Translations under genes and position numbers: made by a program
The notes under the pieces: model-generated
What the model was told of the DNA's origin: nothing
Seen by the model: only the letters and a program-made list of their open reading frames with translations
Databases searched by the model: none
Source of the DNA: a virus
Taxonomy: Duplodnaviria > Caudoviricetes
DNA: 64,000 nt
Virus record (IMG/VR): IMGVR_UViG_3300035498_000530
Coordinates: 1-64,000 of that record
Reading direction: 5' to 3' (one strand)
Shown here: piece after piece, positions 9,973 to 19,775 of the stretch
Layout of the letters: each line of letters opens with the position of its first letter
Position numbering within the stretch: the first letter of the stretch is position 1

Positions 9973-11199
9973 TCACTTTTTATAGTAATAAGACTTTATA
10001 GGTGGTCTCTTCTTCACATAGATAAGCGAATTAGTTGCTCTTGAAACTCCTACATAATTAAGTTTATTGCTTATATCTCCCATATATTCTTCAAGATATA
10101 TTACATTAGCAAACTGAGATCCTTGGGAGAGATGAGCTGTTATAGTATATGCAGGTTCAAATAATTCTCCCATACTATATTTATCAATCTTTATCTTTCT
10201 TCTATCTTCCTCATTACCAGAATAATACTTGTAATTAGCTTGTATATCACTAAATGTTATAGAATTATCCTGTATAGGAGATACACTCATATTGAATGTC
10301 ATTCCTTTTTCATCAAAGTCAGTTACATTTATAGTAGATAATGATTGTACTATCAAACCATTAGCAAGATTAAGATATCCTTCAGACAATCTCCAATTAT
10401 TCTTTCTACATATCAATCTATCTCCATAGACCGGTAATGTAGACTTTATACCAAGAATATCTTGCCTGATTCTCTTATTCATTTCATATTTAGTTTTATT
10501 CTTGCCACATATTATGATATCTGCACATTTGATCATATCATCAGTCAGATCTTCTTCATATATAACAAGAACATCACCATAGTATCCTATATTTATAGGA
10601 AGTCCCATTTTACAACGTTGAGAAAGCTGAACAATATAAGATTGTTCAGCCTGACGCATAACCTTAGTGAGTCTTTTAACTTTCCTAGAATCATATAAGT
10701 ATGCTGGTCTATCTGCTACCGGAGGTAACTGATCTATATCTCCAGTAACCAATATAGGTATATTGAATTTTTCTATATACTGCTTTAAAGACATAGGAAC
10801 ACATGATCCTTCATCTATTATAATAAGCTTTATTCCTGGAAGTTCATCCTTAGGAACAAATTTAGAAGTATATACAGGAGTACCATAATAGCTATGATAT
10901 ACCTGTTTACCTGATTTATCTATCATAGGAGTTTCTATGATATCAAATATCCATGAATGAATGGTCTTAGCATTAAGAAGACCATTGTTTCTCATGTTTA
11001 TAACCGCCGCTCCAATATATGACATAGGAGCTATTTCATCTTCTAATAAATTTAATTGAGATAAGATCTCTCTTAAAATAGTTGTCTTTCCAGTACCAGG
11101 TCCTCCTGAGTATTCAAATACTCCACCTACACCAGAATTAAACCATTTGACAGCAGATTGAATTACATCAATCTGCTCTTCATTTAGTACAATACTCAT
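9973..11199 (-). CDS. SF1B helicase (Dda/RecD-like)
   Basis: GGPGTGKT, IIIDEGS, GDIDQLPPV, LTKVMRQ, TAHLSQGSQF, YVGVSRA. Confidence 0.92.
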   Translation of the reverse strand: MSIVLNEEQIDVIQSAVKWFNSGVGGVFEYSGGPGTGKTTILREILSQLNLLEDEIAPMSYIGAAVINMRNNGLLNAKTIHSWIFDIIETPMIDKSGKQVYHSYYGTPVYTSKFVPKDELPGIKLIIIDEGSCVPMSLKQYIEKFNIPILVTGDIDQLPPVADRPAYLYDSRKVKRLTKVMRQAEQSYIVQLSQRCKMGLPINIGYYGDVLVIYEEDLTDDMIKCADIIICGKNKTKYEMNKRIRQDILGIKSTLPVYGDRLICRKNNWRLSEGYLNLANGLIVQSLSTINVTDFDEKGMTFNMSVSPIQDNSITFSDIQANYKYYSGNEEDRRKIKIDKYSMGELFEPAYTITAHLSQGSQFANVIYLEEYMGDISNKLNYVGVSRATNSLIYVKKRPPIKSYYYKK

Positions 11200-11201
11200 A
11201 T

Positions 11202-11684
11202 TTATTCTCCTTCATATTGATGGAATGTTTTATGATCTTGATTTATTATAGATGCAAGTTCAGCATAGCATAATGCATCATTATAATAAGATTCAGTCCT
11301 TATTATATCCTCAATATTATCCTTTATATATACTAATTCAAAGTATCTTGGTCTAAATCCGTCTCCGGCCTCAAATATAGGATAATATGTCTTTACATAT
11401 ATACCATAATCTTCTGAAGCATTGCTAAGATAATAAGCAAATAGTTTTGATATTAGATTCATATTTCTTAATGGATTAAACTGTATCTCATCTCTTGATA
11501 CAGCCCTTTTCAGAGTAGCACATTTGATAGGTTTATTATCTATCATTAAAATGCTGTCGTTGTTTACGTCTGCTAAATACATTAGTAGATCCATCGTAAA
11601 TCCAAAATCTTCCATCACAATGGTAGCAAATTCCTGCTCCTTTTGTGACATTTCATTACTGTTGTACATTTTCCGTTTATTCAT
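11202..11684 (-). CDS. Hypothetical protein
   Basis: GGAGG RBS; same unit as the helicase. Confidence 0.75.
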   Translation of the reverse strand: MNKRKMYNSNEMSQKEQEFATIVMEDFGFTMDLLMYLADVNNDSILMIDNKPIKCATLKRAVSRDEIQFNPLRNMNLISKLFAYYLSNASEDYGIYVKTYYPIFEAGDGFRPRYFELVYIKDNIEDIIRTESYYNDALCYAELASIINQDHKTFHQYEGE

Positions 11685-11774
11685 AAAGAATTCCTCCTTA
11701 AAGTATTACGTATTTGTTCTTTATGATATAAAAGTTAAAATTATTGACATTTATATAATAAGGAGTGATAATAT

Positions 11775-12113
11775 ATGGCTAATAATATTGATACTAGATA
11801 TACCGAGATAGCAGAATTAGTTAATATAACTAACAAATATTATCCTGGTATACAACAATTTAGACTTAATTCTCTCGTCACAGGAGAATTGAATGAAACT
11901 CAAACTAATAACAAAAGAAATATACAAAACAAAGATTCCAATGCTTTAGGAATAAGTACTACTACACAAGCTAATGTAGTAGAAATTAAATTACCAAAAG
12001 AGCATACTATAACTTATCAGAAAAAGTTTATACCGGCTGGTACTAAATTCTTAGTATGCTTTATTGGTGGTGATATATCTAGCCCAAAAATTATAGGAAG
12101 GATTGATGATTAA
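11775..12113 (+). CDS. Putative baseplate protein (gp5/VgrG N-terminal OB-fold-like)
   Basis: IPAGTKFLVCFIGGDISSPKIIG; GACA-N6-TA promoter at 11746-11757. Confidence 0.55.
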   Translation: MANNIDTRYTEIAELVNITNKYYPGIQQFRLNSLVTGELNETQTNNKRNIQNKDSNALGISTTTQANVVEIKLPKEHTITYQKKFIPAGTKFLVCFIGGDISSPKIIGRIDD

Positions 12114-12517
12114 TGGCTCAGTTAAGTACCTCATATTCATTACAACAGTTTATTGATTCTGGTAGTAAAGTAAGTATAACTTATGGAAAGTTTTCTACTA
12201 CAGAAACTGTTGGAGATATAAAGTTTCCATCTTATCATGTTGTAGATGATTACTTGGATGAAATTAAAAGCTATGCAGTTGATGTAGAATTGACTAAAGA
12301 CGAATACTTTAAATATAAGTATAGACCAAAGATACTAGCATATGATGTATATGGTAGTACAGAATTAGACTTTATTATACTAGCATTAAATGGATTGGCT
12401 GATATGAAAGATTTTGATCTTAGAACAGTTAAACTTCTTAAGAAAACATATATGACTAATATCATATCAAGTATATATAATTCTGAAGTTGGATTTATCC
12501 AATCCAACCAAAATTAA
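12113..12517 (+). CDS. LysM-like baseplate wedge protein (T4 gp53-like)
   Basis: YRPKILAYDVYGSTELDFIILALNG. Confidence 0.65.
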   Translation: MAQLSTSYSLQQFIDSGSKVSITYGKFSTTETVGDIKFPSYHVVDDYLDEIKSYAVDVELTKDEYFKYKYRPKILAYDVYGSTELDFIILALNGLADMKDFDLRTVKLLKKTYMTNIISSIYNSEVGFIQSNQN

Positions 12518-12532
12518 AGATAACAATATAGT

Positions 12533-12645
12533 AAAAAGAGACACTAAATGGTTATGGTCTTTTTTCATTTTCTTTAAACTCCAAAAATTTTGTTTGCATA
12601 GCAAAATTTAGCCCTAGGATTGTTATAATCCTAGGGCACTCCTTT
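12533..12645 (+). ncRNA. Candidate late small RNA (three hairpins, anti-RBS segment)
   Basis: AACA-atatag-TA at 12522-12533; only a 9-codon ORF on this strand; terminator stem at 12611-12637; 12562-12582 matches 18390-18410 at 20/21. Confidence 0.5.
12611..12637. terminator. Hairpin between convergent units
   Basis: GCCCTAGGATT/AATCCTAGGGC stem. Confidence 0.8.
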
Positions 12646-12647
12646 GT

Positions 12648-13196
12648 TTAATAGCGTCCTCTATAGCATATAACTATAGACCTATCTGATAAATCACTAA
12701 GTAAATCTGGATCTATTGATATCTTAATCTGCATTGCTGTAAGTAAATACATATTTATAGTTAGTGCGCTTGATCCGCCAATATTGTTTTCAGAATCTTG
12801 TTCAAATGAAAGTTCTGGATAAATAGTACTATATACTTTTGCAGTATTAGTTGATCCCAATATAGTAACAGAACTAGGATAATATGAAGATATGCTACAT
12901 TTTTTTAAGATATTTTTTGTATCTTCATATAATGTAGGATTATCATCATTTTGAAGTTCGTATGCTGTTGTTACACAATCATCATAATCAACACTTATTT
13001 CTTTATAATTTCTATATGAATCTATAGAATTCCAAGTATCAACATAATATTCTCCAGATTCATTAAAATCTGACATCTTTATTATTTTATATTTTTCTTC
13101 TATATCATGGTTCTGTGGTAATCCATTTACTACATTAACAGCTGGATCTAGAATAACAGTCTTACTACCATTTACTGTTCCTATAATAGTTGCCAT
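12648..13196 (-). CDS. Hypothetical protein (late)
   Basis: GGAGG RBS; late promoter at 13228-13239. Confidence 0.75.
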   Translation of the reverse strand: MATIIGTVNGSKTVILDPAVNVVNGLPQNHDIEEKYKIIKMSDFNESGEYYVDTWNSIDSYRNYKEISVDYDDCVTTAYELQNDDNPTLYEDTKNILKKCSISSYYPSSVTILGSTNTAKVYSTIYPELSFEQDSENNIGGSSALTINMYLLTAMQIKISIDPDLLSDLSDRSIVICYRGRY

Positions 13197-13266
13197 ATTA
13201 GATTTACCTCCTTTATAAAGTTTAATTTATTAAGATGTTATTAGTTCCAGTTTTAGAAAAAATAAA

Positions 13267-13290
13267 GAGAGAAGGAAAAATCCTTCTCTC
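13267..13290 (-). terminator. Terminator after the helicase
   Basis: GAGAGAAGGA/TCCTTCTCTC stem plus TTTATTTTTT. Confidence 0.85.
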
Positions 13291-15061
13291 AGTCTATCCA
13301 AATCAATGGGTTTATGAGCTTCTTAGTTTCATTTTTAAACTGATTCTGCATTGGCTGCATATTCGGACTCGGAACCATATTTGGATTTGGATTATAATTT
13401 TGCTGCATTGGTAATCCAATCATTCTAGCTAATTGATTATAATCATTTACATTATTCTGCATAGGTTGCATATTATTCATCGGTGGCATACTATTCATTG
13501 GTTGCATATTTCCATACCCTATAGTTGTTGCACCATTAATAGAATTCTGAGGAACTTGAGGTTTCATAGAATTCTTATATGCATTCTCTACAGTAAATTC
13601 ATCTTCAACTAATTTTAATGGAAGATATTTATCATATGGTTGATATAAGTGGTCTATAGATGCTATACCATCTTGTCTGAATCTTCCTTTAACTCTACTT
13701 ATACCTAAATACTTATCTCCATTATAATCAATCTCAGGTGCTATCATAAATACAGCATCTGCGAAGTCAATCATTATCATTGATTCGCCAACTGTATCTC
13801 TTCCGAGTAATGATACTAAATCAGACTTATTTGTCTTTCTACCTTCATCAACTCGTCTTACACCATCTCTATTAATCTGAGATGCTGTTATTACTGGTAT
13901 TCCCTTCTCTTTTGCAAATGCAGTAAACTCCTTTACTACATTACCAAGAGCTATTCTTAATTCAGGACTATATTCTGTAGGTTTGATTACTTTTACATAA
14001 TCCATTATAAGGCATATTGGTTCGAATCCATCATCATATAGTTTATCATACATACTATATAAAAAACTTGTATTCTCTGAATCTGGTGGTCTAGATACAT
14101 GTATGAATTCAATATTAGTTGGTTTATTTACATCATACAATATATTTATATACTCATCTTCTGAATAGTCTGTCATGTTTTCTGGTCTAGCTGTCATATT
14201 CCAAATACGTTCTGCTGTCTCTTTATTAAAGTTTTCCATAGATAGCATAACTACACATGGTTTCTTCGTAGGGTCTTTAGCTACTATATTTGGATTATAC
14301 CTTCTTATCTGAAGTCCAAGATTTAATAATGTTGATGATTTACCTTCACCTTGGAGACCGAAGAATAAATAAGTTCTTCTACTCTCGAATCCTCCATTAA
14401 GCATATCATTAAGTCCTGCCATTCCGCATCTCAATTTATTAGATGCTTCACTATTCTCTTTATAATATCCTCTCATAGATTCTTCTGAATCTCTAGATAA
14501 TATAAACATATCATTCTTATCAAATCCAGAATCATATAATCTGATATCTGAGTTTGCTTTTGATATAAGTTCTGAAAATTCCTTCATTGCATCGGCTTTA
14601 TGGTCATATTCACCACTCTGATACTTTGAAATCATTGTAATTAACTTCTTTGCATTTTCATCCATACAATAGAATGATAATGCATCTGATATAGTAGAAT
14701 TAATCCATTCTAATTCTTCTGGTGTCAAATCTGAGAATGATTCTAAATCTACTAATAATTTCTCTTGTAACGCACCGCCCTTGATATATGATAATATCAA
14801 TCTTGGGTCTCTGAGTTTCTTATTGAGCTTTGCATCAAGCACTTTCTCTATAAACTCTATTTTATTTATACGGTCATCATTATAATCTGATTTATCAATC
14901 GAATTCATTAATGTTTCTAAATTTCTTAGTTGTGTTGTAGTAACGCAATCTTTATTAGAAATAGCTAATGCACACATTAAGTCTAATGTAGCACTATCAA
15001 ATTTCTGAATAACCTTATGTTTCTTGTTTCCTCTACTGGAAAATCTTTTAACATCAGCCAT
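13289..15061 (-). CDS. Replicative SF4 helicase (DnaB/T4 gp41-like) with an M/Q/N/P-rich tail
   Basis: LNGGFE, GLQGEGKS, LSMEN, IMDY, VITASQINR. Confidence 0.9.
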   Translation of the reverse strand: MADVKRFSSRGNKKHKVIQKFDSATLDLMCALAISNKDCVTTTQLRNLETLMNSIDKSDYNDDRINKIEFIEKVLDAKLNKKLRDPRLILSYIKGGALQEKLLVDLESFSDLTPEELEWINSTISDALSFYCMDENAKKLITMISKYQSGEYDHKADAMKEFSELISKANSDIRLYDSGFDKNDMFILSRDSEESMRGYYKENSEASNKLRCGMAGLNDMLNGGFESRRTYLFFGLQGEGKSSTLLNLGLQIRRYNPNIVAKDPTKKPCVVMLSMENFNKETAERIWNMTARPENMTDYSEDEYINILYDVNKPTNIEFIHVSRPPDSENTSFLYSMYDKLYDDGFEPICLIMDYVKVIKPTEYSPELRIALGNVVKEFTAFAKEKGIPVITASQINRDGVRRVDEGRKTNKSDLVSLLGRDTVGESMIMIDFADAVFMIAPEIDYNGDKYLGISRVKGRFRQDGIASIDHLYQPYDKYLPLKLVEDEFTVENAYKNSMKPQVPQNSINGATTIGYGNMQPMNSMPPMNNMQPMQNNVNDYNQLARMIGLPMQQNYNPNPNMVPSPNMQPMQNQFKNETKKLINPLIWID

Positions 15062-16283: not shown

Positions 16284-16421
16284 TTATAGGCTATCTATAA
16301 TATAACCGAGGTTAACTAAAATAATCATTATAAATATAATAAGCAAAACAAATAAAAGTACATTATCAGAAGTCCAACTGTTTCTTAAATATTCTACGAG
16401 TTTTTTAATTACATCAATCAT
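16284..16421 (-). CDS. 45-aa single-pass membrane protein (not in the ORF track)
   Basis: MIDVIKKLVEYLRNSWTSDNVLLFVLLIIFIMIILVNLGYIIDSL; AAAGGGG RBS; own late promoter (16448-16459) and terminator. Confidence 0.7.
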   Translation of the reverse strand: MIDVIKKLVEYLRNSWTSDNVLLFVLLIIFIMIILVNLGYIIDSL

Positions 16422-16459
16422 AATAATAACCCCTTTATAACATACTTTACTAGAATGTT

Positions 16460-17598: not shown

Positions 17599-18396
17599 TT
17601 ATTTCCAATCTATTACATTCCAAGGATATAATATGTATTTTTTATGTGATTTGGCAAAGCAATCAAGAAGATATAATGCTAAAGGTTCCAATTCACTTAG
17701 TGCAAAAAATATAGGTCTTAAAGCCTCATCAGCAATATTATATTTATATTTAGAATAATTATCTTGAAATACACTTATCTGATATACTGCTGATAAAGAA
17801 TCATATTTGTCTAAATATCGTATTTCAAAATTTCTATCTCTTGATAAAGGGTAGAATCTTTTAGCATATTCAAAGTCCCTCTTGATTGGAATACTCAGTT
17901 TTAATTCTATATCCCCATAGAATTCATTATTCATAATTTTCAAAGGAATTATTATTCTTCTAGATGATTGACACATATAAACAAGTTCTCCCTTAACTTG
18001 TTTATCGTATACCTTTAAGGCGTAATATTCACATGGTATATCGTATCCATCATTATTACTATATAGATGATATATGATATTAACAATATCTATTATGAAC
18101 TGAAATAGTTCATCGTTTTTCTTTTTCTTTTTTTCTAATTCATATATAACGTCTGGATCTAAAGTACATGGATCTATATATCCTCCTTTAGCTTCTTTCT
18201 TTACATATTCCTTATATTTTGAAAAGTTCTTTATGATTGATTTTCTTAATTTGATGTACTTAAGATTTGTCTGAAATTTTTCTGAAATTCGTTTATGTAT
18301 TTTAATGTTCTTATTTGCATTATCAAGAAGTTTAAATTCTCTTGTACAGTAAAATAATTCTGAATATAATTCGTATACATCTTTTTCCATTTTCAT
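17599..18396 (-). CDS. Hypothetical Lys-rich protein
   Basis: ORF between the two nucleases; AGGAG RBS overlapping the upstream stop codon. Confidence 0.75.
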   Translation of the reverse strand: MKMEKDVYELYSELFYCTREFKLLDNANKNIKIHKRISEKFQTNLKYIKLRKSIIKNFSKYKEYVKKEAKGGYIDPCTLDPDVIYELEKKKKKNDELFQFIIDIVNIIYHLYSNNDGYDIPCEYYALKVYDKQVKGELVYMCQSSRRIIIPLKIMNNEFYGDIELKLSIPIKRDFEYAKRFYPLSRDRNFEIRYLDKYDSLSAVYQISVFQDNYSKYKYNIADEALRPIFFALSELEPLALYLLDCFAKSHKKYILYPWNVIDWK

Positions 18397-18402
18397 TTTC
18401 TT

Positions 18403-19128
18403 TTAACTCCTAATGATTGAATTGTACATTTGTTCTGATCTAGATATATTCCAGTATGCATATACTAAAGATAGAAATGATTCTACATTTTGTTCATGGA
18501 AAGTTCTATGTCCAGGACAAGATAAATCTATTATATATTCAGTATATTCTGGTTTGGTTTTATCTAGATGCAAAATTTCTACTGCGTCTATATTCATTCC
18601 AATCTGTGTTCTGAGCATATATTCATATGCCGCTAACTGAAGGAAATATTTATATGTTACAGATTTGCTAGTTTTAAAATCTAGCAAGATTATTTTATCA
18701 TTTCTCGTCTTGAATACTAAATCCATAGTACCACCATAGTAAGGACAAGATAAACTTAATTCAGAATATAATATATTTATATCTGGGTTATTATTATATA
18801 TCCAATCCTTTAATGCTACATATGCACTAAGATCTTCAAGATCTATAATCTGATTCTTTTGTTCTTGATCATCTCCTAATAAGACTTCTGCTCTACGATG
18901 GACTTCTGTGCCATAATCTGTTGCTATCTTAGATATATCAGTATGGCGTTTTCCTTTGAGTCCCATATTATTAGCCCAAGTCATAAGATAATCTTCATGT
19001 ATCATTTTAGATAATATAGTACTCACCCTAGGAACATAGTAATTATTAAACATATATGGACCCTCAGGTAAGTTTAATTCTTTTATATGAACTCTATTCA
19101 TTAAACTAGAAACACTTAAATCGTTCAT
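18403..19128 (-). CDS. PD-(D/E)XK (RecB/Cas4-like) exonuclease
   Basis: PRVSTIL, GTEVH, GGTMDL, LLDFKTS, QLAAY. Confidence 0.88.
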   Translation of the reverse strand: MNDLSVSSLMNRVHIKELNLPEGPYMFNNYYVPRVSTILSKMIHEDYLMTWANNMGLKGKRHTDISKIATDYGTEVHRRAEVLLGDDQEQKNQIIDLEDLSAYVALKDWIYNNNPDINILYSELSLSCPYYGGTMDLVFKTRNDKIILLDFKTSKSVTYKYFLQLAAYEYMLRTQIGMNIDAVEILHLDKTKPEYTEYIIDLSCPGHRTFHEQNVESFLSLVYAYWNISRSEQMYNSIIRS

Positions 19129-19164
19129 TTTAAATTTTCCTTTCTACTCTATTTTTAGAAAAAA

Positions 19165-19195
19165 TAAAAGAGCAGATTAAAAATCCACTCTTTAT
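19165..19195 (-). terminator. Terminator or attenuator upstream of the nuclease operon
   Basis: Stem with G-U pairs plus TTTATTTTTT. Confidence 0.65.
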
Positions 19196-19204
19196 ATTTT
19201 TATA

Positions 19205-19660
19205 TTACTCAGCATATGTATTTCCTTTACCTTCCACTTTAGTTTCTGTGAAAGAAGTATCAAATACTGCTGTATATTTGATATAATTCAATCTGTCGTA
19301 TGAATTATATATTCTAGAAACAGTTGAAATACGGATTGATCCATCTTCATACTGTTTTCTTACATATTGTTGTGCGTCATCCCTTATCAAAGGAATACAA
19401 TACACTAATATTACTATAAGTCCTACGACTATAGCAAGATTAATTTTGAAATCTAATTTCTTGTGGTAACTTTTTCTCTTCTGAGTTTTATACCACTTAT
19501 TGATTTCGTGTAATTCAGGATTCTGATTTCTCTCCTGTACTCTGTAGGCTTTCATTCTTTCAATGCCTCTTTCTGTGTTGATGTTCTTTGTTGTAACCCC
19601 TGATGTAGTATCCATTGAATATACATCGATTATGTTTTTTGCTGTAAGTATGTTTTTCAT
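19205..19660 (-). CDS. Early membrane protein (one TM segment)
   Basis: INLAIVVGLIVILVYCIPLI; early motif at 19728-19735. Confidence 0.75.
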   Translation of the reverse strand: MKNILTAKNIIDVYSMDTTSGVTTKNINTERGIERMKAYRVQERNQNPELHEINKWYKTQKRKSYHKKLDFKINLAIVVGLIVILVYCIPLIRDDAQQYVRKQYEDGSIRISTVSRIYNSYDRLNYIKYTAVFDTSFTETKVEGKGNTYAE

Positions 19661-19775
19661 CTTACATTCCTCCTCTTGTATTATTTTAAAGTTGGGATTA
19701 TGATATATATTTATCTATATCAAATTTATAATATATAATTATTTTTTGTCTGTTTTACTATAAAATTCCAAGTAG

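Follow-up and report, generated by a model that had tools for sequence, protein, structure and literature searches.

In the genome of a jumbo phage distantly related to Bacillus phage AR9, the gap between two converging genes (12518-12647) holds a gene-free unit that runs from a promoter to a terminator. Judged from sequence, the chances are about even that this is an ORF-less late transcription unit, located within the 3′ UTR of a baseplate-wedge operon, and that its product is a late small RNA (sRNA) exposing a stretch complementary to a ribosome binding site (anti-RBS seed). The parts of this reading differ in strength. That the RNA is made is fairly probable; an action through pairing with an initiation region is plausible, if somewhat short of an even chance; and gene 17599-18396 is a tentative, rather doubtful assignment as its target.

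A promoter-to-terminator unit between converging genes

The window, that is, the whole stretch of 64,000 nucleotides analyzed here, is the beginning of a jumbo-phage genome represented by one contig of 222,731 bp (30% G+C); the phage is known from metagenomes only. Its DnaB-like helicase shares ∼31% identity with its counterparts in the Bacillus phages AR9, PBS1, and vB_BpuM-BpSp, and ∼28% with those in Staphylococcus jumbo phages. The genome also encodes an RNA polymerase (RNAP) β-like protein of 1499 aa (E 7e-134), which points to a multisubunit RNAP, together with topoisomerase II subunits, a Dda-like helicase, SbcD, a Cas4/PD-(D/E)XK-like exonuclease, and tail and baseplate proteins. Helicase identity and the RNAP β-like protein bear out the placement in the AR9 group made in the original prediction, and by its sequence the phage is classed as a distant member of the AR9/PBS1 group.

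The gap follows a gp53-like baseplate wedge gene (12113-12517, +; PHROG baseplate wedge, 1.6e-6; Pfam Phage_gp53, 8.8e-4), and the 3′ UTR of the corresponding mRNA holds the entire element. On the other side lies a converging gene for a 182-aa protein of unassigned function (12648-13196, −), which has its own late promoter (AACATCTTAATAA, 13228-13239). Nucleotide and protein searches of a phage collection with the locus and with the 182-aa gene gave no matches, and the gp53-like protein retrieved only remote matches from cyanophages, Staphylococcus, and Bacillus in that collection. The baseplate operon itself (11775-12517) is preceded at 11744-11772 (+) by GACATTTATATAA, a late-box variant with one mismatch, which overlaps a chance-looking match to TTGACA-17-GATAAT; L003 and L007, two contigs of related phages (see below), have TACA-N6-TA at the equivalent position.

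Late promoters of AR9 read AACA-(6N)-TA/G, with AACA at −11 to −8 and the transcription start at the final base (PMC5312081). A box of this late (AR9 nvRNAP) type, AACA-ATATAG-TA (12522-12533, +; AACA at 12522-12525, ATATAG at 12526-12531, and TA at 12532-12533), lies 5 nt past the stop codon of the gp53-like gene, and its predicted start is A 12533. The perfect late promoter without a gene behind it, from which the original prediction had departed, is therefore present. In the genome as a whole, AACA-N6-TA is rarer than predicted from base composition (189 copies versus ∼346 expected). Its distribution is skewed: 53 of the 189 copies (28%) are intergenic, while intergenic DNA makes up 8.6% of the genome, and 44 copies are found 12-60 nt upstream of start codons (control tetramers, 1.5-5%). 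A weight matrix was derived from these 44 gene-proximal copies; beyond the consensus, it showed preferences for T after AACA, A at −3, and A at +2. When ranked on the non-fixed positions, the 12522 copy came 13th of 266, and nearly all of the top 40 were intergenic. By its enrichment upstream of genes, AACA-N6-TA is to be regarded as a genuine promoter signal in the present genome. A late-type box, AACAATATATTA, also directly precedes a tRNA-like sequence (TTT, Lys anticodon; read by eye), which is followed by a terminator (genome ∼172600-172725, −); with a late box in front of a tRNA gene, this promoter type would drive non-coding genes as well.

Downstream of the box, the predicted RNA has a simple layout. 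A 5′ stem-loop starting at +2 (12534-12565; stem 12534-12542/12557-12565, AAAAGAGAC/GUCUUUUUU) is followed by the anti-RBS stretch, UUUUCAUUUUCUUUAAACUCC (12562-12582, +), which is the complement of a translation initiation region and predicted to be mostly unpaired; the unpaired probability is at least 0.9 for nt 34-52 of the RNA. Then come a second stem-loop (12585-12609; stem 12585-12594/12600-12609, AAAAUUUUGU/GCAAAAUUU) and an intrinsic terminator, of which the hairpin spans 12611-12637 and which, including its tail ACUCCUUUGUUUA, extends to 12650. All four elements originally described, the 5′ stem, the mostly unpaired linker, the second stem, and the terminator stem, were thus recovered at the same positions. 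The terminator hairpin has 10-12 pairs, 6 of them GC, and scores as a terminator in both directions, with the tails ACUCCUUUGUUU (+) and UAAAUUUUG (−); it would serve the candidate RNA as well as the two converging units, the baseplate operon and the 182-aa gene. AR9 polymerases stop strongly at predicted intrinsic terminators (PMC5312081). Ordinary late mRNAs of the phage mostly lack a 5′ hairpin (mean −3.0 kcal/mol). When the unit was searched against Rfam, nothing was obtained at gathering thresholds; the best sub-threshold match was RsaA (19.6 bits versus the required 50, E 0.28).

The unit may be part of a wider set. When the genome was scanned for late boxes followed by no ORF led by a Shine-Dalgarno (SD) sequence and then by a terminator, further ORF-less late units were found at 64843 (+), 68286 (−), 82283 (−), 82838 (−), 93711 (−), and 200650 (+). 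The 82283 and 12522 units share a 20-nt 3′ end, GGGC-R-CTCCTTTGTTTAATA, which suggests a duplicated 3′ module; the former ends in GGGCGCTCCTTTGTTTAATA, 15 nt identical to the tail of the latter. A 775-nt ORF-free gap between the gene for the RNAP β-like protein and the next gene (82089-82864, −; L015:6089-6864) contains three late-type boxes (82838, 82591, and 82283), and a terminator follows two or more of them.

Conservation in related phages

Relatives syntenic with the window (contigs L003-L008) were recognized by their gp53-like proteins, which are 62-71% identical to that of the window phage (P0002, 71%; P0003, 69%, 23 contigs; P0004, 62%). A search of viral, metagenome, and genome contig sets for further relatives found none. 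Strain-level copies of the locus (L016-L020) are 99.8-100% identical to the window and therefore offer no variation that could be tested. When the intergenic sequences were aligned, two conserved islands stood out, the box and the terminator with its tail CTCCTTTGT; the rest, including the ∼70 nt 3′ of the box, could not be aligned among the lineages. The box, ATAAC(A/T)-N4-TAGTAAAG, is located 0-2 nt past the TAA stop codon in the window, L003-L006, L007, and L008, and reads ATAACAATATAGTAAAA in the window, ATAACTATATAGTAAAG in L003-L007, and ATAACATAATAGTAAAG in L008. L003 and L007 have AACT instead of AACA. The same A/T difference separates the promoters of orthologous genes in the window and L003/L007 lineages; in both, AACT-N6-TA stands before a conserved 118-aa gene, and the motif shows moderate enrichment in front of genes. 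Likewise, the late promoter of the 182-aa gene is kept between the window and L003/L007. A minus-strand early-type promoter inside the conserved box was considered and rejected, as the conserved positions match the late consensus and not TATATATTAT.

Promoter-like motifs elsewhere deserve mention. A strong late box, AACATTCTAGTA (16448-16459, −), lies 27 nt upstream of a 45-aa ORF (16284-16421, −) of which the C-terminal half is hydrophobic. A 41-aa ORF is called at the equivalent place in L004 and L005, and the 45-aa ORF is likely a gene for a small membrane protein between sbcD and the 118-aa gene. An early-type motif, TATATATTATAAA, is found at 19715-19735 (−), upstream of gene 19205-19660, and TATATATTAT also precedes several genes in L003 and L007. 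These early motifs fit the two-polymerase scheme of AR9, in which the virion RNAP reads early promoters.

Despite the divergence of sequence between the islands, the folding of the predicted RNA recurs. In all four RNAs compared (window, L003, L007, and L008), the fold is far more stable than that of shuffled sequences (z −5.3 to −7.0). A hairpin at +2 is present in the window, L003, and L007, each time with a different sequence, and compensatory changes are observed at 9 of the 19 pairs of the terminator across six sequences. The second stem-loop is specific to the lineage of the window and missing from the folds of L003, L007, and L008. The 6-nt loop of the terminator is inverted between near-identical contigs, reading GC-TATAAT-GC in L003/L004 (L003:8487-8512) and GC-ATTATA-GC in L005/L006, which looks like a hairpin-loop flip between strains.

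In more distant relatives (L009-L014, among them L009 and L012; 43-45% identity), a homologous terminator stands directly after the gp53-like gene and converges on the helicase gene. This arrangement suggests that the module of promoter, hairpin, and seed, together with the variable minus-strand gene, was added in a narrower clade. Going by these alignments, the promoter-plus-seed module would be a clade-specific insertion that has been retained in all members seen.

Upstream of sbcD lie the 265-aa gene proposed as the target (17599-18396), the adjoining exonuclease gene, and a 151-aa gene; L003 and L007 lack orthologues of all three at this position. This slot (17599-19660) is filled with unrelated genes in the relatives (L003:13546-16295; L007:13575-15913) and appears to be a variable accessory region. 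The 182-aa protein encoded by the converging gene is 28% identical to a 174-aa protein of L003 (L003:8523-9047), and the corresponding slot in L008 (2152-2838) holds an unrelated 228-aa gene; the 182-aa gene (12648-13196) looks fast-evolving or replaceable, and its site looks like another variable cargo slot.

Complementarity to an initiation region

Segments 12562-12582 and 18390-18410 agree in 20 of their 21 positions. On both strands of the 222,731-bp genome, this is the sole match with three or fewer mismatches, the next best having four. The two copies, read on the minus strand, are GGAGTT(T/A)AAAGAAAATGAAAA, that is, SD sequence, spacer, ATG, and AAAA. The proposed target site (18390-18410, −) consists of the SD (GGAG), the spacer, the AUG, and the first codons of gene 17599-18396 (−), and overlaps the TAA stop codon of the Cas4/PD-(D/E)XK-like exonuclease gene (18403-19128). 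Both the identity and the complementarity to the GGAG RBS, spacer, and AUG and to the nuclease stop codon, as first reported for this locus, were confirmed and proved unique in the genome. The protein encoded by the proposed target gene is an orphan of 265 aa without an orthologue in the relatives; it matched no Pfam or PHROG family, and its Atlas model was poor and gave no usable look-alike.

It had been a concern from the outset that such a match might be no better than expected among AT-rich RBS regions. In fact, it exceeds an RBS-aware null (p about 1e-4 to 1e-3). When the RNA was compared with all initiation regions (blastn-short), it scored 34.2 bits, which none of 100 shuffles reached (mean 22.5, SD 2.5). 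A position-weight (column-frequency) model of initiation regions in this phage predicts 9e-5 partners at 20/21 for the 21-mer, and only 0.07% of synthetic RBS-like 21-mers had a 20/21 partner. Among 174 confident initiation regions, four have such a partner; these are two pairs of consensus-like starts, AGGAGGAAAA...ATGGGA. The 21-mer at 12562-12582, on the other hand, carries rare features, namely, TT after GGAG and G at −4. As the match exceeds the RBS-aware null, it is probably not accidental, and would reflect either selection for pairing or shared descent.

The duplex of the RNA with the initiation region of gene 17599-18396 amounts to −24 to −27 kcal/mol, or −17.4 kcal/mol after opening costs are included. 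When the phage's initiation regions were screened for duplexes, a check proposed along with the original prediction, this region came out best of ∼195 after correction for accessibility, but not by a clear gap: an RNase H-like gene (−15.1) and an unassigned gene (−14.7) were both within 3 kcal/mol, and the energies form a continuum. The RNase H-like gene (64954-65643) was rejected as a conserved target, the initiation region of its orthologue in the L008 lineage pairing weakly (−12.5). Two further candidates were also rejected: autoregulation via the initiation regions of the baseplate genes themselves, where pairing is inconsistent across lineages, and pairing with the mRNA of the neighboring converging gene, where matches extend over 7-8 nt only.

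Within the 16-kb loci of the relatives (18-19 initiation regions each), their seeds had no partner with two or fewer mismatches in 18 nt, and the best duplexes were unremarkable. The proposed target gene, for its part, is lineage-specific. Among the ORF-less late units of the genome, only the 12522 unit displays complementarity to initiation regions beyond that of shuffled sequences. A general model in which late sRNAs of this phage are anti-RBS RNAs was rejected accordingly, as the other units do not exceed shuffles.

Competing readings and comparison with known systems

Segment 12562-12582 would equally make a good minus-strand RBS, and the unit can also be read from that side. GGAG-N10-ATG would then start a hydrophobic 33-aa peptide (MKKDHNHLVSLFTILLSLILVGLDKSNFRIIYT; 12467-12568, −), which may be a type I toxin, with the plus-strand RNA as its cis-antisense antitoxin, an alternative that had accompanied the original prediction. 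The ORF does exist as described, with a good SD, spacing, and ATG. Type I toxins have one hydrophobic helix flanked by charged ends, and the peptide, with one hydrophobic helix between charged ends, resembles these. Moreover, an SD-like element plus start is present on the minus strand in all four lineages (GGAG-N10-ATG in the window, GGAGAG-N7-ATG in L003, GAAGAG-N7-ATG in L007, and AGGAAG-N7-TTG in L008), equivalent to a CAU/CAA-N7-10-CUCC-like layout on the plus strand. By a hand estimate, GGAG-N7-11-ATG is expected in ∼60 nt of such composition with a chance of less than 1% per lineage, so its recurrence is unlikely by chance. What recurs is an initiation-region-like sequence, which means either a minus-strand RBS or a plus-strand anti-RBS. 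The minus-strand ORFs, however, are of 33 aa in the window and of 17, 10, and 15 aa in the relatives, unrelated in sequence and in different frames relative to the conserved box, and a Pfam search with the 33-aa peptide returned no match even at E ≤ 10; the conserved entity is, by this comparison, the initiation-region-like sequence and not a peptide. Furthermore, the terminator of the 182-aa gene precedes, on the minus strand, the 33-aa ORF, which overlaps the gene converging on it by 51 nt. In the ∼30 nt of minus strand between that terminator (12611) and the SD (12582), inspection by eye revealed neither an AACA/AACT-N6-T(A/G) late box nor an early motif of the TATATATTAT type, and the nearest minus-strand σ70-like match to the ORF start at 12568 (scan of 11000-14000) is at 12888-12859, ∼290 nt upstream. 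The SD of L007, finally, is degraded to GAAGAG; we infer that CUUC in place of CUCC would retain antisense pairing through G-U while weakening the SD of the minus strand. The lack of a conserved product, the lack of a visible minus-strand promoter, and this C-to-U change favor the plus-strand RNA, which itself contains ORFs of no more than 9, 11, 1, and 0 codons in the four lineages. The 33-aa ORF is therefore judged to be no gene, a peptide or toxin function of the minus-strand ORFs appears unlikely, and a functional minus strand with an antitoxin-like RNA opposite is very improbable.

If the plus strand is the relevant one, its transcript need not act by pairing. The unit could work by transcription itself, e.g., by protecting the baseplate genes against antisense transcripts that read through from the converging gene, by polymerase collision, or in an R-loop/origin-type role, or it could make a stable RNA with another role; the match at 18396 would then have no regulatory meaning. 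Such a reading is consistent with a middle part that diverges freely while conservation is limited to box, 5′ hairpin, and terminator, with the lack of a recoverable target in the relatives, and with the several other ORF-less late units devoid of initiation-region complementarity. The unit is situated among replication genes, and in AR9, late promoters drive antisense RNAs to which no function has been assigned (PMC5312081). It leaves unaccounted for, however, that the RBS-complement layout (CAU/CAA, 7-10 nt, and CUCC-like) recurs in all lineages despite their divergence, and that the match beats the RBS-aware null; as to an origin, GC skew gave no signal beyond gene orientation. We consider this reading rather unlikely. 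Quite improbable, by comparison, is that the unit has no current function, the promoter being fortuitous or decaying and the 21-nt identity being left from a past duplication or recombination of two initiation regions. The sharp boundaries of the identity, and the location of both the target gene and the 182-aa gene in variable, cassette-like regions, would be in line with such an origin. Yet the box is kept across lineages whose flanking proteins are just 62-71% identical and whose other intergenic sequence cannot be aligned, and the architecture is kept in every member of the clade.

For the anti-RBS sRNA, the following mechanism is proposed. The non-virion RNAP of the phage would start at A 12533 from the AACA-N6-TA box and stop at the shared terminator (about 12645-12650), which would yield an RNA of about 113-118 nt. 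At its 5′ end, this RNA would carry a protective hairpin, followed by a pyrimidine-rich single-stranded stretch (CAU-N10-CUCC) and, at the 3′ end, the terminator hairpin. Late in infection, its exposed stretch would pair with one mRNA, or a few, at the initiation region and thereby keep ribosomes off. In the window phage, the best partner would be the orphan gene 17599-18396, which adjoins the genes for the Cas4-like exonuclease and SbcD. That the nuclease operon is shut down late, before packaging, and that silencing is polar on sbcD, is speculation. For the clade of AR9-like jumbo phages, one can further envision a late sRNA made by the phage polymerase in which promoter, 5′ hairpin, and terminator are fixed while the anti-RBS stretch evolves freely and is retargeted, lineage by lineage, to a lineage-specific accessory gene. 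This extension is unlikely on present evidence; if true, it would amount to an evolvable RNA switch for the late shut-off of early accessory functions.

The 12522 unit is a concrete and falsifiable case, as it has a defined start, a defined end, an accessible seed of 17-21 nt, and a single best target, all of them predicted. If the proposed mechanism is true, it would represent RNA-level temporal control, of an earlier mRNA by a late RNA, in a phage that is independent of host transcription, and the conserved scaffold would allow the evolution of the seed to be followed across lineages. Among the sRNAs of phages with their own multisubunit RNAPs, we know of none with an assigned target or mechanism, and to our knowledge no small RNA has been described for the AR9/PBS1 group with its uracil-containing DNA.

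Several well-known RNAs resemble the candidate in part. The phage antisense RNAs c4 of P1/P7, sar of P22, and OOP of lambda are ∼70-80 nt long and pair with phage mRNA. Of these, c4 and sar cover the RBS of ant, and c4 acts on sites that do not overlap c4 itself and covaries with its targets between P1 and P7. These RNAs are products of temperate phages and of host RNAP, and they serve the control of immunity or lysogeny, sar and OOP being strictly cis-encoded; the window phage, in contrast, is a jumbo phage of lytic type, the promoter is specific for a phage polymerase, and the target is putative. The enterobacterial sRNAs DapZ and MicL are embedded in 3′ UTRs, have their own promoter at or just after the end of the upstream coding sequence, and share the terminator of the mRNA. 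The candidate RNA has the same arrangement, with the promoter just after the upstream coding sequence and a terminator shared with the mRNA, whereas DapZ and MicL are bacterial and Hfq-dependent and their targets were mapped experimentally. In the type I toxin-antitoxin systems of Firmicutes (Fst/RNAII and TxpA/RatA), a small hydrophobic ORF is combined with an antisense RNA over its initiation region. The 12522 locus would share both features with them; unlike in those systems, its ORF is not conserved, has no visible promoter, and matches no family.

Closest in kind are transcripts of other giant phages. The 12522 box conforms to the late consensus of AR9 (PMC5312081), AACA-N6-T(A/G), in which transcription begins at the final base, although proteins of the window phage share only ∼30% identity with those of AR9. 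Some late promoters of AR9 have no gene behind them, and seven of these drive antisense RNAs (Lavysh et al. 2017, PMC5312081). Those RNAs are cis-encoded, opposite long genes, while the 12522 unit is short and free of ORFs, ends at a terminator ahead of the converging gene, and has its complementary site at a distance of 5.8 kb. In the jumbo phages 201phi2-1 and phiKZ, sRNAs were mapped by ONT-cappable-seq or dRNA-seq; 201phi2-1 has 11, three of them intergenic, including a conserved one that adjoins a tail gene, and their functions are unassigned (PMC11512511). Like the 12522 unit, these are short promoter-to-terminator units of giant phages with their own multisubunit RNAPs. They belong to another phage group and another promoter type, and theirs are mapped transcripts for which no target was proposed, whereas the 12522 RNA is predicted from sequence and has a proposed target. 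With the antisense RNAs of P1, P22, and lambda, the late antisense transcripts of AR9, and the phiKZ-like sRNAs already known, the 12522 unit would not be a new category but would join these RNAs.
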